DNA from: Escherichia coli
GTDB lineage: Bacteria; Pseudomonadota; Gammaproteobacteria; Enterobacterales; Enterobacteriaceae
Assembly: GCF_003018235.1 (NCBI RefSeq)
Contig: NZ_CP027437.1
Strand: one strand, 5' to 3'
DNA length: 64,000 nucleotides
In this document: positions 884 to 27,824 of the stretch, piece by piece
How positions within the stretch are numbered: position 1 is the stretch's first letter
How the letters are laid out: every line of letters starts with the position of its first letter
Translations under genes and position numbers: made by a program
Notes under the pieces: generated by a model
What the model saw: only the letters and a program-made list of their open reading frames with translations
Told to the model about the DNA's origin: nothing
Database searches by the model: none

Positions 884-3118
884 ATGGTTGCGGTAAGAAG
901 TGCACATATCAATAAGGCTGGTGAATTTGATCCGGAAAAATGGATCGCAAGTCTGGGTATTACCAGCCAGAAGTCGTGTGAGTGCTTAGCCGAAACCTGG
1001 GCGTATTGTCTGCAACAGACGCAGGGGCATCCGGATGCCAGTCTGTTATTGTGGCGTGGTGTTGAGATGGTGGAGATCCTCTCGACATTAAGTATGGACA
1101 TTGACACGCTGCGGGCGGCGCTGCTGTTCCCTCTGGCCGATGCCAACGTAGTCAGCGAAGATGTGCTGCGTGAGAGCGTCGGTAAGTCGGTCGTTAACCT
1201 TATTCACGGTGTGCGTGATATGGCGGCGATCCGCCAGCTGAAAGCGACGCATACCGATTCTGTTTCCTCCGAACAGGTCGATAACGTTCGCCGGATGTTA
1301 TTGGCGATGGTCGATGATTTTCGCTGCGTGGTCATCAAACTGGCAGAGCGTATTGCTCATCTGCGCGAAGTAAAAGACGCGCCGGAAGATGAACGCGTAC
1401 TGGCGGCAAAAGAGTGCACCAATATCTACGCGCCGTTGGCGAACCGTCTTGGGATTGGACAACTGAAATGGGAGCTGGAAGATTACTGCTTCCGTTATCT
1501 CCACCCGACCGAATACAAACGCATCGCAAAACTGCTGCATGAACGCCGTCTCGACCGCGAACACTATATCGAAGAGTTTGTCGGTCATCTGCGCGCTGAG
1601 ATGAAAGCTGAAGGCGTTAAAGCTGAAGTGTATGGTCGTCCGAAACACATCTACAGCATCTGGCGCAAAATGCAGAAAAAGAACCTCGCCTTCGATGAGC
1701 TGTTTGATGTGCGTGCGGTACGTATTGTCGCCGAGCGTTTACAGGATTGTTATGCCGCACTGGGGATAGTGCACACTCACTATCGCCACCTGCCGGATGA
1801 GTTTGACGATTACGTCGCTAACCCGAAACCAAACGGTTATCAGTCTATTCATACCGTGGTTCTGGGACCAGGTGGCAAAACCGTAGAGATCCAAATCCGC
1901 ACCAAACAGATGCATGAAGATGCAGAGTTGGGTGTTGCTGCGCACTGGAAATATAAAGAAGGCGCGGCAGCTGGCGGCGCACGTTCGGGACATGAAGACC
2001 GAATTGCCTGGCTGCGTAAACTGATTGCGTGGCAGGAAGAGATGGCTGATTCCGGCGAAATGCTCGACGAAGTACGCAGCCAGGTCTTTGACGACCGGGT
2101 GTATGTCTTTACGCCGAAAGGTGATGTCGTTGATTTGCCTGCGGGATCAACACCGCTGGACTTCGCTTACCACATCCACAGTGATGTCGGACACCGCTGC
2201 ATCGGGGCAAAAATTGGCGGGCGCATTGTGCCGTTCACCTACCAGCTGCAGATGGGCGACCAGATTGAAATTATCACCCAGAAACAGCCGAACCCCAGCC
2301 GTGACTGGTTAAACCCAAACCTCGGTTACGTCACAACCAGCCGTGGGCGTTCGAAAATTCACGCCTGGTTCCGTAAACAGGACCGTGACAAAAACGTTCT
2401 GGCTGGGCGGCAAATCCTTGACGACGAGCTGGAACATCTGGGGATCAGCCTGAAAGAAGCAGAAAAACATCTGCTGCCGCGTTACAACTTCAATGATGTC
2501 GACGAGTTGCTGGCGGCGATTGGTGGCGGGGATATCCGTCTCAATCAGATGGTGAACTTCCTGCAATCGCAATTTAATAAGCCGAGTGCCGAAGAGCAGG
2601 ACGCCGCCGCGCTGAAGCAACTTCAGCAAAAAAGCTACACGCCGCAAAACCGCAGTAAAGATAACGGTCGTGTGGTGGTTGAAGGTGTCGGTAACCTGAT
2701 GCACCACATCGCGCGCTGCTGCCAGCCGATTCCTGGAGATGAGATTGTCGGCTTCATTACCCAGGGACGCGGTATTTCAGTACACCGCGCCGATTGCGAA
2801 CAACTGGCGGAACTGCGCTCCCATGCGCCAGAACGCATTGTTGACGCGGTATGGGGTGAGAGCTACTCCGCCGGATATTCGCTGGTGGTCCGCGTGGTGG
2901 CTAATGATCGTAGTGGGTTGTTACGTGATATCACGACCATTCTTGCCAACGAGAAGGTGAACGTACTTGGCGTTGCCAGCCGTAGCGACACCAAACAGCA
3001 ACTGGCGACTATCGACATGACCATTGAGATTTACAATCTGCAAGTGCTGGGCCGCGTGCTGGGTAAACTCAATCAGGTGCCAGACGTTATCGACGCGCGT
3101 CGGTTGCACGGGAGTTAG
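884..3118 (+). CDS. relA: GTP pyrophosphokinase, (p)ppGpp synthetase I
   Basis: 744-aa ORF with RBS aaggagagg upstream; RelA/SpoT family sequence; synteny with mazEF. Confidence 0.95.
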   Translation: MVAVRSAHINKAGEFDPEKWIASLGITSQKSCECLAETWAYCLQQTQGHPDASLLLWRGVEMVEILSTLSMDIDTLRAALLFPLADANVVSEDVLRESVGKSVVNLIHGVRDMAAIRQLKATHTDSVSSEQVDNVRRMLLAMVDDFRCVVIKLAERIAHLREVKDAPEDERVLAAKECTNIYAPLANRLGIGQLKWELEDYCFRYLHPTEYKRIAKLLHERRLDREHYIEEFVGHLRAEMKAEGVKAEVYGRPKHIYSIWRKMQKKNLAFDELFDVRAVRIVAERLQDCYAALGIVHTHYRHLPDEFDDYVANPKPNGYQSIHTVVLGPGGKTVEIQIRTKQMHEDAELGVAAHWKYKEGAAAGGARSGHEDRIAWLRKLIAWQEEMADSGEMLDEVRSQVFDDRVYVFTPKGDVVDLPAGSTPLDFAYHIHSDVGHRCIGAKIGGRIVPFTYQLQMGDQIEIITQKQPNPSRDWLNPNLGYVTTSRGRSKIHAWFRKQDRDKNVLAGRQILDDELEHLGISLKEAEKHLLPRYNFNDVDELLAAIGGGDIRLNQMVNFLQSQFNKPSAEEQDAAALKQLQQKSYTPQNRSKDNGRVVVEGVGNLMHHIARCCQPIPGDEIVGFITQGRGISVHRADCEQLAELRSHAPERIVDAVWGESYSAGYSLVVRVVANDRSGLLRDITTILANEKVNVLGVASRSDTKQQLATIDMTIEIYNLQVLGRVLGKLNQVPDVIDARRLHGS

Positions 3119-3134
3119 GCCGAAATTAGCTCGT

Positions 3135-3173
3135 ATCTACAATGTAGATTGATATATACTGTATCTACATATG
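3135..3173 (+). promoter_or_regulatory. mazEF promoter/operator region with palindromic repeats
   Basis: Perfect palindrome atctacaatgtagat at 3135-3149 and repeated tatctacat at 3161-3170; -10-like tatact at 3155-3160; directly upstream of mazE. Confidence 0.6.
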
Positions 3174-3195
3174 ATAGCGGTTTGAGGAAAGGGTT

Positions 3196-3444
3196 ATGAT
3201 CCACAGTAGCGTAAAGCGTTGGGGAAATTCACCGGCGGTGCGGATCCCGGCTACGTTAATGCAGGCGCTCAATCTGAATATTGATGATGAAGTGAAGATT
3301 GACCTGGTGGATGGCAAATTAATTATTGAGCCAGTACGTAAAGAGCCCGTATTTACGCTTGCTGAACTGGTCAACGACATCACGCCGGAAAACCTCCACG
3401 AGAATATCGACTGGGGGGAGCCGAAAGATAAGGAAGTCTGGTAA
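3196..3444 (+). CDS. mazE: Antitoxin MazE
   Basis: 82-aa [22 protein letters not shown]..., AbrB/MazE fold; overlaps mazF start (ATGGTAA). Confidence 0.95.
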
Positions 3445-9790: not shown

Positions 9791-9999
9791 TTAAACATTT
9801 ATAAGCGTTATAAATGGGTGGAACCTGTAAAGATTTCTACTCATTTATATTGTTTGTCGCCTCTGAAAACTCCTCCATTTTACCCATCCAGGGCTAATCA
9901 TTAGCATTCTCTACAAATTCTGCGGCATTAATTTTTCGCTGGAGTGAAAATTATTGCGGTAAAGTTTGGTAGATTTTAGTCGGTATAGGATTACTTTAA

Positions 10000-10128
10000 A
10001 TATTTAGCTTTTCAATCAATGAATTAAGTGCTCTTTAACATAATGGATGTGTTGTTTGTGTGATACTGTAAAGTTGGTAGATTGTGACTGGCTTAAAAAA
10101 TCATTAATTAATAATAGGTTATGTTTAG
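10000..10128 (+). promoter_or_regulatory. AT-rich CRISPR leader (approximate bounds)
   Basis: AT-rich non-coding stretch abutting the first, leader-proximal repeat; the degenerate repeat is at the opposite end of the array. Confidence 0.5.
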
Positions 10129-10400
10129 AGAGTTCCCCGCGCGAGCGGGGATAAACCGGCCGTCGCCGGATCAGCCTGGCTATGCCAGCAGAGTTCCCCG
10201 CGCCAGCGGGGATAAACCGGACGAACAAAATAAAAACCAACTGAATGATGCGAGTTCCCCGCGCCAGCGGGGATAAACCGCGAACCCTTGAACCGATAAG
10301 GGCGCTGTTTTGGAGTTCCCCGCGCCAGCGGGGATAAACCGGATAGGTGTTACACATATGACCTGGCACTGGCGAGTTTCCCGCGCCAGCGGGGATAACC
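10129..10400 (+). CRISPR. Type I-E-style CRISPR array, 5 repeats and 4 spacers
   Basis: 29-nt repeat gagttccccgcgccagcggggataaaccg at 10129 (variant cgcgag), 10190, 10251, 10312, plus degenerate terminal repeat at 10373-10400; four 32-nt spacers at 10158-10189, 10219-10250, 10280-10311, 10341-10372. Confidence 0.95.
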
Positions 10401-10447
10401 ATTCAGGTATGTTCAGGCCGGGCAGTTTCCCGCCCGGCCTTCCTCAC

Positions 10448-25507: not shown

Positions 25508-26242
25508 ATGTCCAAACTCGATCTAAACGCCCTGAACGAACTGCCGAAGGTAGATCGCATTCTGGCGCTGGCAGAAACTAACGCCGAACTGGAAAAACTG
25601 GATGCTGAAGGCCGCGTTGCCTGGGCGCTGGATAATCTGCCCGGTGAATATGTACTTTCTTCCAGTTTCGGCATTCAGGCGGCGGTGAGCCTGCATCTGG
25701 TGAATCAGATTCACCCGGATATCCCGGTGATCCTGACCGATACGGGTTATCTGTTCCCGGAAACCTACCGCTTTATTGACGAGTTAACGGACAAACTCAA
25801 GCTCAACCTGAAAGTGTACCGCGCTACCGAAAGCGCCGCCTGGCAGGAAGCGCGCTACGGCAAACTGTGGGAGCAGGGTGTTGAAGGCATTGAAAAGTAC
25901 AATGACATCAACAAAGTCGAACCGATGAACCGGGCGCTGAAAGAACTGAATGCGCAAACGTGGTTTGCTGGCCTGCGCCGCGAACAATCCGGCAGTCGCG
26001 CCAATTTACCGGTGCTGGCAATTCAGCGTGGCGTATTTAAAGTGCTGCCGATTATCGACTGGGATAACCGAACGATATATCAGTATCTGCAAAAACATGG
26101 CCTGAAATATCACCCATTATGGGACGAAGGATATTTATCGGTCGGTGATACCCATACAACCCGTAAATGGGAACCCGGCATGGCGGAAGAAGAAACGCGT
26201 TTCTTTGGCTTAAAAAGAGAATGTGGTTTACACGAAGGGTAA
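25508..26242 (+). CDS. cysH: Phosphoadenosine phosphosulfate (PAPS) reductase
   Basis: ORF 25355-26242; start set at [14 protein letters not shown] (244 aa); C-terminal ECGLH motif. Confidence 0.95.
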
Positions 26243-26260
26243 ATGTTATCCGGATAAATT

Positions 26261-26299
26261 AAACGCCTCTGTCAGAAATGATGGGGGCGTTTTTATTTT
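26261..26299 (+). terminator. Rho-independent terminator after cysH
   Basis: aaacgcc...ggcgttt stem followed by ttttatttt. Confidence 0.6.
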
Positions 26300-26409
26300 G
26301 CGAGCAGCATTCCTGATTTTAAACGTGAACGCCGCTGGAAGAATCAACAGGTATAGAATGGTGTCGGGTGCTTGAGGCTGTCTGGCGTTAAGCATTCGCG
26401 AGGTTCCAG

Positions 26410-26514
26410 ATGGACAAAAGCCCCAGGCGATATTTCTATCAACCTGAGGCCAGCGTTCGAACCCAAACAATTCGAATGTTAGTCTCTTCTTTGCAGGGAG
26501 GCAAGACATGCTGA
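26410..26514 (+). CDS. mok-like leader ORF overlapping the hok-like start (34 codons)
   Basis: ATG at 26410, stop TGA at 26512-26514 overlapping the downstream ATG (acATGcTGA); translation [34 protein letters not shown]. Confidence 0.4.
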
Positions 26515-26660
26515 CAAAATATGCCCTTGTGGCAATCATAGTGCTGTGTTTTACAGTACTGGGATTCACGCTGATGGTAGGCGACTCGTTGTGTGAGTTG
26601 AGTATCAGAGAACGTGGTATGGAGTTTAAGGCAGTTCTCGCTTACGAATCGAAGAAGTAG
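26508..26660 (+). CDS. Hok/Gef-family membrane toxin (type I toxin-antitoxin), 50 aa
   Basis: [50 protein letters not shown]: single TM helix plus conserved LCEL..R.G..E..A..AYES.K tail; below the ORF-track size cutoff. Confidence 0.8.
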
Positions 26661-26786
26661 CCACCACGCGGGGGTAAAACCCCGCGTACTGAATTGTTAA
26701 AGTTTGGCCTCCTGCACCCCTTTTTTATACTCTGTTTCTGGTGGCATTGATTTCCTGCAGGCAAGGGAGTAATCATTTCAAACCCA

Positions 26787-27824
26787 TCAAGACGCCTTCG
26801 CCAGCTCCTTCACCAGCGGTAGCATTATCCGCATAACATCACGGCAGCGACGTTCTATTCTTCCTGGAAGTGCCTTATCAATATGTTGTTGATTATCCAG
26901 TCTTACGTCATGCCAGCTATTTCCCGCAGGGAATGCAGCTGTTTTTGCGCGTTGCTGATAACCATCCTTATTCCCAAGATTCCAATTTGTTGCTTCTACC
27001 GAAAGTACGGCAATACCGGCTTTGTCGAAAACTTCGGCGTCATTACAACAGCCAGTACCCTTCGGATAATTTTTATTCAAACCCGGATTGGTCGTTGCGG
27101 CAATTCCATGACTACGCGCAATTGCCAGCGCCCTGTCGCGCGTTAATTTCCTTACTGCTTCAGGGGTTTTTACGCCGCTGTTGAAATACAATTTATCGCC
27201 AACAATTAAGTTATCGAGATTAATCACCAGCAGCGTATTTTTCTTTTCGGTGTCACTCATCCGCTTGAGTAAATTCTCAGCACCTAATTTCCCTTCCTCT
27301 TCACCACTGGTCGCCACAAATCGAATACCATACTCGGTAGGCGTATTTTTCAGGCGTTCTGCCAATTCCAGCATGACACCTAAACCTGCAGCGTTATCAT
27401 CCATTCCTTGTAACGTCAGTCCGCCGAGATTGGCATCGGCGTCAGCATCGCTCAGCGGGGCGTAAGTATCCAGATGCGCCATAATGATGATCTGCTGCGG
27501 CGCTTTGCCTTCATGAGCGGCAATCACCGTACTTCCCGTCACGTTATGCCAGCTCTTGCGATTATCGCGGGCGGTATAAATATACCGACTATTAAATGTC
27601 CGAATATCACTGCGATAACCCATTTGCTGAAACTGTTGGCGAATATAATCGGCAGATAACATTTCTGCTGGAGTTCCGGTCATGCGTCCCGGAAAGAAAG
27701 TAGCAATATGTCGTGCCTGAGTATTAGCAAAATCGCCAGGTTTAGATGACGAGGCGTGTACGGGGAGAATAAAGCATACGCCGAGCGCCAGGGCAGCGGT
27801 ACGGTGGCGCAATGCGGAAAACAT
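26787..27824 (-). CDS. iap: Alkaline phosphatase isozyme conversion aminopeptidase
   Basis: 345-aa ORF with signal peptide; M28 peptidase family; convergent with cysH. Confidence 0.9.
   Translation of the reverse strand: MFSALRHRTAALALGVCFILPVHASSSKPGDFANTQARHIATFFPGRMTGTPAEMLSADYIRQQFQQMGYRSDIRTFNSRYIYTARDNRKSWHNVTGSTVIAAHEGKAPQQIIIMAHLDTYAPLSDADADANLGGLTLQGMDDNAAGLGVMLELAERLKNTPTEYGIRFVATSGEEEGKLGAENLLKRMSDTEKKNTLLVINLDNLIVGDKLYFNSGVKTPEAVRKLTRDRALAIARSHGIAATTNPGLNKNYPKGTGCCNDAEVFDKAGIAVLSVEATNWNLGNKDGYQQRAKTAAFPAGNSWHDVRLDNQQHIDKALPGRIERRCRDVMRIMLPLVKELAKAS

Follow-up and report, generated by a model that had tools for sequence, protein, structure and literature searches.

The 544-bp spacer between cysH and iap in the analyzed DNA (the window, a stretch of 64,000 nucleotides of Escherichia coli) is very probably occupied by hokX/sokX, a type I toxin-antitoxin locus of the E. 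coli chromosome, with CRISPR-I in a cas-less arrangement that has been published. The identity of the locus as hokX/sokX, taken by itself, is practically certain. The module lies directly downstream of cysH and in the same orientation, and its protein is a RefSeq HokX allele, as in the cysH-linked hokX/sokX. The locus, its name, its position adjacent to cysH and the cas-less arrangement are all already known from the literature and from RefSeq annotation, since PMC3903273, PMC7232551 and PMC12736100 describe both the locus and the arrangement. The practical value of the analysis lies in a correction concerning the relation of hok to cas; as a discovery, it carries little weight.

The genes cysH (25508-26242, plus strand) and iap (26787-27824, minus strand) are convergent, and the spacer between them spans positions 26243-26786. 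An earlier note on this DNA, made from the sequence, had described a gap of about 545 bp with a Hok/Gef-type ORF, and the ORF was found at 26508-26660 with the peptide exactly as quoted there. The order in the cas-less arrangement is cysH, hok/sok, a short junction and iap. Next to cysH and in the coding part of the module, the following features were read:

26261-26302, plus strand: cysH (cysJIH operon) terminator of the intrinsic type, with a 14-bp stem-loop and a T-run behind it, from the terminator scan.
26496-26501, plus strand: hok Shine-Dalgarno (SD) sequence GGGAGG, 6 nt before the ATG, read from the sequence and kept in all relatives.
26508-26660, plus strand: hokX coding sequence, 50 aa, with one N-terminal transmembrane (TM) helix and the conserved SLCEL...AYESKK tail.

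The terminator is part of the neighboring cysH and not of the hok module, and it was kept in every aligned E. coli allele. Weak Rfam matches within it (PyrR, ctRNA_p42d and Spot_42) fell under their gathering scores and were rejected; they are due to the terminator hairpin.

The reading of the spacer as a Hok/Gef type I toxin module was supported by family models for both the protein and the RNA. When the 50-aa peptide was subjected to the HMM search proposed in the earlier note, it matched Pfam HOK_GEF (PF01848) with an E value of 3.5e-11 and 43 bits, residues 5-46 covering model positions 1-42 of 42. The leader of its mRNA matched Rfam RF01794 with 111.1 bits. Among the NCBIfam models, HokA and the Hok subfamily scored best, each under its curated cut-off (57.7 versus 89 bits for HokA, NF007290; 41 versus 73 bits for the Hok subfamily). 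Identity with the HokA equivalog was thus ruled out, and HokX is therefore a separate paralogue. In RefSeq, the identical protein is WP_000956460.1 (VCSW7, BL21, TB06052), named "Hok/Gef family protein", a label that RefSeq applies to the same protein at the same position in thousands of genomes. Relative to the more frequent B2/O157 protein WP_000956458.1, the allele present here carries F15C. HokX possesses the hydrophobic N-terminal helix, the Cys/LCE motif and the A(Y/C)E tail of the Hok/Gef architecture. In an alignment with HokA, HokB, HokC, plasmid Hok and two HokX-like proteins, residues C14, T16, L28, E30 and A45 were invariant, and SLCEL and AYESKK were present. A degenerate-pattern scan of species-representative genomes yielded 28 HokX-like copies in 24 DNA stretches.

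The coding sequence is flanked by elements of a predicted hok mRNA and its promoter:

26354-26359, plus strand: putative -10 box TAGAAT of the hok promoter, lying 6 nt ahead of the predicted start of the mRNA.
26366-26727, plus strand: predicted hokX transcript in full length, about 362 nt, running from the 5' end of tac to the U-run after fbi.
26366-26523, plus strand: 158-nt leader of the hok mRNA, Rfam RF01794, full model 1-157, which takes in tac and ucb, the hairpin targeted by Sok and the hok SD.
26366-26379, plus strand: tac element GGGUGCUUGAGGCU, at the mRNA 5' end, RF01794 alignment positions 1-14.
26666-26687, plus strand: GC-rich 3' UTR hairpin ACGCGGGG-GTAAAA-CCCCGCGT, from predicted folds, an IS186/IS421 insertion hot spot.
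26706-26719, plus strand: fbi element GGCCUCCUGCACCC, complementary to tac with 6 bp, a 2x2 internal loop and 6 bp, and followed by a U-run at 26721-26726.

RF01794 was the sole Rfam family found in the window. Its match to the leader (gathering score 59, E value 4.8e-26) covers the full model; the boxes tac and ucb are included, as is the hairpin targeted by Sok, all of which characterize the structured leader of the hok/sok paradigm. Although named "sok", this family is a sense-strand family and describes the hok mRNA leader; it also matches the K-12 hokB and hokC leaders and a plasmid hok leader in the same orientation, with 94-118 bits. The ends of the mRNA are predictions: the 5' end was set to position 1 of the RF01794 match and the 3' end to the point at which cas-E1 (O157) and cas-less sequences diverge. 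The fold z-score of the transcript so delimited was -3.9. At an equal distance from GGGTGC, a -10-like hexamer (TAGAAT, TATGAT or TAAAAT) was present in 26 related loci. The hok promoter is presumed to be weak because it has no good -35 box.

The earlier note had taken gcttgaggct (26370-26379) for the 5' tac element, and this was correct, as the string lies inside the motif GGGTGCTTGAGGCT at 26366-26379, which aligns to RF01794 positions 1-14. The tac element was invariant in 7 aligned E. coli sequences and nearly invariant in 26 relatives; across 11 E. coli alleles, a single substitution was seen (T26379C in strain TB06052). Its complement fbi, the 3' partner expected from the hok/sok paradigm, was found as well. 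The duplex of tac with the 3' UTR was calculated at -24.1 kcal/mol, a value equalled by 0.3% of shuffled 3' UTRs. In 26 of 26 relatives, the best partner of tac was the same 3'-terminal site, despite divergent 3' UTRs, and in one Klebsiella group, a U7 to C change in tac was paired with a U to G change in fbi. Forcing the tac-fbi pairing cost 0.9 kcal/mol (-129.3 versus an MFE of -130.2 kcal/mol). In the unconstrained MFE fold, the 3' element pairs with the hok SD and not with tac. Strong SD pairing of this kind is confined to Escherichia alleles, and Klebsiella and other relatives lack it; as every one of these alleles and relatives possesses the tac-fbi pairing, the pairing with the SD is probably incidental.

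Opposite the leader, on the minus strand, lies the antitoxin part of the locus:

26410-26468, minus strand: SokX antisense RNA, 59 nt, identical to K-12 sokX.
26476-26504, minus strand: putative sokX promoter, with -35 TTGCCT (26504 to 26499), a 17-nt spacer and -10 TAACAT (26481 to 26476).

A Sok-like RNA on the minus strand within the leader had been anticipated by the earlier note around 26380-26460. Strand and location in the leader held true, while the position had to be revised to 26468-26410, where the minus strand is 100% identical to the annotated K-12 ncRNA sokX (b4701). In the K-12 reference, this sRNA gene is annotated between cas3 and cysH. From its 5' end, SokX has a short hairpin, then an unpaired stretch, and last a terminator hairpin with CUUUUGU; its predicted fold, terminator hairpin included, amounts to -23.8 kcal/mol. 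The transcriptional start site, a G at 26468, lies 7 nt downstream of the -10 box, in agreement with the 5' end annotated for sokX, and the hok SD on the opposite strand overlaps with the -35 box. With 8 of 12 consensus positions, the sokX promoter is just under the scan threshold; in 26 relatives, the -10 box reads TAACAT or TACTAT and the -35 box is conserved. Judged by its sequence, SokX has the properties of a Sok RNA, i.e., a length of about 60 nt, its own promoter and terminator, and complementarity to the leader, with the promoter boxes assigned by eye. Since the consensus promoter scan reported neither the hok nor the sok promoter, and both were placed by eye and by homology, both are regarded here as putative. 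SokX reads have been reported from K-12 Ribo-seq libraries (PMC7580957), and a sok_15/sokX transcript has been listed in EDL933 (PMC5331693).

A mechanism for the locus can be proposed by analogy, with its steps borrowed from the plasmid R1 hok/sok paradigm. The weak promoter with its -10 box at 26354-26359 would give rise to a stable mRNA of about 362 nt, which would be kept closed and untranslated by pairing of the 5' tac with the 3' fbi. Slow trimming from the 3' end would take off fbi and let the leader refold, and tac would then pair with the AAAGCCCC box at 26416-26423, following the Rfam consensus structure. The 59-nt SokX, made from its own promoter on the opposite strand, would pair with the leader at 26410-26468 and thereby direct the duplex to decay. 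Upon a drop in SokX, the 50-aa Hok would be made, insert into the inner membrane and collapse the membrane potential. In the R1 paradigm, translation of hok depends on mok. Here hokX departs from the paradigm, and if it is translated at all, initiation directly at its own strong SD is the most likely route. Whether the locus bears the features needed for R1-type translation was read from two sites upstream of hok:

26410-26514, plus strand: ORF of 34 codons, earlier called mok-like; its TGA overlaps the hok ATG (ATGCTGA).
26457-26459, plus strand: UCG at the canonical mok start position, in frame with hok and 17 codons upstream of it, 7 nt after GAGG (26446-26449).

The mok-like ORF proposed in the earlier note exists and overlaps hok out of frame; its conservation as a coding sequence could not be upheld. 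It is intact in the window, in the VCSW7, AST215 and BL21 alleles and in the K-12 leader, whereas the B2 and O157 alleles shorten it to 18 codons. TB06052 has ACG in place of its ATG, by which a G-U pair of the leader stem becomes G-C. This change strengthens the leader stem, which suggests RNA structure and not coding as the constraint. In hokX-like loci outside the Escherichia/Pseudocitrobacter clade, the ATG is absent. This ORF is thus probably not a conserved gene.

The UCG at 26457-26459 aligns in the Rfam alignments with the AUG of mokB, mokC and plasmid mok, all of which start 7-8 nt after a conserved GAGG box. Several Klebsiella hokX-like copies have an AUG at exactly this position, which opens an in-frame extension of hok. 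In every allele of the Escherichia/Pseudocitrobacter clade that was read, the position is UCG or CCG, so that the Escherichia clade has no canonical mok start. Accordingly, a mok frame of the R1 type, starting in the Sok target and overlapping hok, was not found. As an alternative mok, a 12-codon ORF from ATG 26476 was considered and rejected: it is conserved in E. coli alleles, its ATG lies within the -10 box of Sok (TAACAT) and has no SD, the codon is ATA in one Klebsiella group, and the P. vulneris group has the ORF in the hok frame.

Since the canonical mok start is missing and hok translation of R1 is mok-dependent, hokX could be silent. The locus would then be a relic that was inherited by descent and is silent or attenuated, with no active toxin and only SokX and an inert mRNA being made. 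This explanation is a serious competitor, albeit less probable than a still-functional module that is translated from its own SD, which is favored by a modest degree. The likelihood that this hokX copy can still make active toxin is likewise estimated, from its sequence features, to be slightly better than even. The upstream frames speak for a relic, as the Klebsiella relatives have kept the mok AUG that all Escherichia/Pseudocitrobacter alleles lack, and the other upstream ORF is truncated or without a start in several alleles.

The toxin itself also provides an argument for attenuation. HokX carries Gly25 after the TM helix, as do all Escherichia/Pseudocitrobacter alleles, whereas HokA, HokB, HokC, plasmid Hok and the two aligned HokX-like relatives have Arg at this position. 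The basic residue that follows the TM helix in these proteins is thus missing from HokX. In other HokX-like proteins, residue 25 is mostly Arg, with Cys and His in two Klebsiella copies. From this small alignment, we infer that Arg after the TM helix may be a defining Hok trait, and its replacement by Gly25 may weaken the HokX toxin.

Losses of the locus point in the same direction. The 3' hairpin is interrupted by an IS421 end in a BL21 derivative and in E. albertii, with loss of fbi in the BL21 derivative. This agrees with the reported inactivation of the hok of E. coli B (hokX) by an insertion element (PMC7232551). The GC-rich hairpin site has been described as the IG2-IG3 boundary and as an IS186 hot spot (PMC3903273). 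Because of these insertions and the loss of the coding sequence in K-12, the hokX locus is judged dispensable. According to Pedersen and Gerdes 1999, cited in PMC7232551, none of the hok loci of K-12 is active.

On the other hand, frameshifts and stop codons would be expected to build up in a relic, and the hokX reading frame was intact in every allele read. Across 11 E. coli alleles, the 9 sites that vary fall into 8 codons; 7 of the sites are synonymous and 2 non-synonymous. The dN/dS of hokX versus distant relatives was 0.08-0.25 (median about 0.14) over the first 37 codons, to which the calculation was restricted because the pattern used to search the collection fixed the last 13 HokX residues and biased the full-length value. 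Among most Escherichia species and clades, dN/dS was 0.05-0.15; the value of 0.29 for one near-identical allele is based on two differing sites. As judged from these substitutions, the hokX coding sequence is under purifying selection. Furthermore, the strong and ideally spaced SD is conserved, as are tac and fbi and both the promoter and the terminator of Sok. The functional module with translation from its own SD is preferred on these grounds.

A further-reaching scheme appears rather unlikely. According to it, a mok-less hokX would be kept by selection; the 3' element, which in Escherichia alleles only is complementary to both tac and the SD, would gate translation; the Arg would have been lost in favor of a non-killing role; and in strains of the K-12 type, the hokX promoter, leader and SokX would control cas3.

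The spacer has also been viewed in relation to cas. The statement of the earlier note that no cas gene is present in the window was borne out for type I-E across the 64 kb: tblastn with the eight cas-E1 proteins of O157:H7 and K-12 Cas3 as queries, i.e., Cas3 in the E1 and E2 variants, CasA-E, Cas1 and Cas2, gave no match. No CRISPR repeat was found in the cysH-iap interval, the only repeats of the window being the CRISPR-II array at 10130-10402. The window thus holds no type I-E CRISPR-I (iap-cysH) locus. The hok coding sequence is the only gene between cysH and iap in the window, where cas-E genes are absent, and it could be supposed that the hok module took over from the cas operon. The genome comparison makes this explanation very improbable. 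In O157:H7, the same hok gene sits between cysH and cas3 of a complete cas-E1 operon, i.e., beside cysH, in the same orientation and directly upstream of cas3. The homology of O157 to the window stops at 26727, exactly at the U-run after fbi, which is the end of the hok unit. In K-12, which carries cas-E2, homology extends over cysH, the promoter, the leader, sokX and the hok ATG and breaks after this ATG; the hok coding sequence has been lost, and cas3 starts about 90 nt past the break, so that the hok ATG is fused upstream of cas3. The contrast with K-12 implied by the earlier note, with hok standing in place of cas, was therefore not sustained: O157:H7 has hok followed by cas3, and K-12 retains the hok leader and sokX.

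The distribution in E. coli was in line with these two strains. The interval was matched in part by 5425 of 5426 complete E. coli genomes, and 3371 of them hold at least 80% of it, with synteny and 95-99% DNA identity of the hokX locus. The exact hok-iap junction of the window was present in only 1129 of the 5426 genomes, ST131, JJ1886 and NC101 among them. The cas-less arrangement is thus common, occurring in about a fifth of sequenced strains, and is ordinary. The sequence that sets it apart is the following:

26728-26775, no strand assigned: 48-bp junction segment, with the hok unit ending on one side and, on the other, the iap-proximal sequence that is shared with cas-positive strains.

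The core of this segment was found in 1127 of the 5426 complete genomes and in no cas-positive genome, and nearly all copies were 100% identical. Outside cas-less genomes, the 48-bp junction had no blastn match, a result that would also be expected if hok had replaced cas. Its local alignment with the O157 region from cas3 to iap was not significant, with a score of 22 compared with a mean of 21 and a maximum of 30 for shuffled sequences.

The published record leads away from a replacement, too. Nine CRISPR-I arrangements have been catalogued by Almendros et al. 2014, with hok sok present except in cas-E2 strains, and the cas-less arrangement has been derived by deletion from a cas-E1 arrangement that already carried hok/sok (PMC3903273). 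The hokX homologue of NRG857c, a B2 strain, has been described as hok-5, located between cysH and iap (PMC7232551). Among 237 UPEC strains, hok and sokX were located beside cysH in 90%, with or without cas, and the remainder had sokX alone, as in K-12 (PMC12736100). The comparison of the cysH-iap interval between genomes with and without cas, which the earlier note had suggested, likewise placed hok beside cysH in both states. These alignments indicate that the hok module is a resident neighbor of cysH that predates, or is independent of, gain and loss of cas. Its presence therefore says nothing about a replacement of CRISPR-Cas. Lastly, that the 50-codon ORF arose by chance in an intergenic spacer is hardly conceivable, since, short as it is and under the usual gene-calling floors, it combines the Pfam and Rfam matches with RefSeq annotation in thousands of genomes and purifying selection.

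Compared with named systems, the locus is closest to the cysH-linked hokX/sokX, i.e., hokX of E. coli B and hok-5 of AIEC NRG857c, with which it shares position, orientation, protein, SokX and junction. Nothing of substance differs from the known hokX; the differences are F15C relative to WP_000956458.1 and the 34-codon upstream ORF that is kept here.

The plasmid loci R1 hok/sok (parB), pnd and srnB/flm likewise encode a single-TM-helix toxin of some 50 aa that carries the LCE...AYE tail, and share with hokX the structured leader with tac, the 3' fbi and a short antisense RNA that is transcribed within the leader from a promoter of its own. In contrast to these loci, hokX is chromosomal, its protein is only about 43% identical to plasmid Hok, the canonical mok start is missing and Gly takes the place of the post-TM Arg. 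Post-segregational killing, the role of plasmid hok/sok, offers no obvious role for hokX on the chromosome.

Among the K-12 loci, the leaders of hokB and hokC share RF01794 with hokX (110-118 bits), and K-12 Sok RNAs of 57-59 nt are located at the place equivalent to SokX. HokA of K-12, the nearest NCBIfam model, is 50% identical to HokX. The AUG of mokB and mokC, 7-8 nt past the GAGG box, corresponds to UCG in hokX.

HokX-like loci with 82-100% protein identity to HokX occur in the Klebsiella oxytoca complex, Pseudescherichia, Pseudocitrobacter and Enterobacter spp., and show the same layout of leader, tac, fbi and Sok promoter. Some of them are tandem duplicates. Unlike hokX, some Klebsiella copies keep the in-frame 17-codon Mok extension and Arg25. 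Most of these loci lie away from cysH, and linkage to cysH was seen only in Escherichia, Pseudocitrobacter and strain RIT691.

K-12 carries a fusion in which cas3 is preceded, at a distance of about 90 nt, by the promoter of hokX with its complete leader, by sokX and by the start codon of hok, whose reading frame ends after four further codons. Since the promoter, the leader and sokX are all retained there, the arrangement is one in which the hokX promoter could drive transcription of cas3, and SokX could have an influence on this gene. A link between SokX and cas3 was absent from the papers returned by a literature search on hokX/sokX. The features referred to here and below are as follows.

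L002 (comparison stretch), 3001-3353: K-12 fusion of hokX leader and sokX to cas3
L004 (comparison stretch), 720-1078: the same fusion
Window, 26728-26775: 48-bp junction segment between hok and iap, with the palindrome CCTGCAGG
Window, 9990-10402: orphan type I-E CRISPR-II array including its AT-rich leader
L005 (BL21 derivative), 1920-2110: IS186/IS421 end in the hokX 3' hairpin
L019 (E. albertii type strain): IS186/IS421 end in the hokX 3' hairpin

The 48-bp junction was limited to the 1127 cas-less E. coli genomes, with 100% identity in nearly all of them, and similarity to the O157 region from cas3 to iap was not detectable. The segment may be either a deletion scar or the ancestral sequence of the empty site. 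The CRISPR-II array was kept even though the window lacks cas-E genes; it comprises four good repeats (at 10130, 10191, 10252 and 10313), a fifth, degenerate repeat at about 10374, and four spacers.

At the 3' end of hokX, both the BL21 derivative and E. albertii have the same end of IS186/IS421 inserted at the GC-rich hairpin, with loss of fbi. In the E. albertii type strain, the leader 5' of the hok ATG was likewise replaced. Besides its complementarity to tac, the 3' element shows complementarity to the SD region of hok (26493-26505 with 26703-26715), which is confined to Escherichia alleles. This pairing, at -20.9 kcal/mol, is the MFE choice, and it was not conserved in other genera.

HokX of Pseudocitrobacter spp. 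(L022, L023, L027) was identical to that of the window and CysH was 97-99.5% identical, while iap was only about 82% identical where covered (L022, L023) and was not detected in L027, which is a short stretch. This near-identity of HokX and CysH next to a divergent iap suggests that the cysH-hok segment has undergone recombination or horizontal transfer, or else that the contigs are mis-assigned. Tandem duplication of hokX-like loci was seen in Enterobacter sp. JUb54 and Klebsiella spallanzanii (L031, L032, L033), with roughly 0.5-1.2 kb between the two copies.

Comparison of the window with hokX-like loci of relatives (L033, L035, L039, L041) revealed UCG or CCG at 26457-26459 in all Escherichia/Pseudocitrobacter alleles, whereas several Klebsiella hokX-like loci carry the canonical in-frame mok AUG; thus, the Escherichia/Pseudocitrobacter clade lacks a recognisable mok. 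Codon 25 of HokX (26580-26582) encodes Gly. HokA, HokB, HokC and a plasmid Hok, as well as most HokX-like relatives, possess Arg at this position after the TM helix, and its replacement by Gly may attenuate the toxin.
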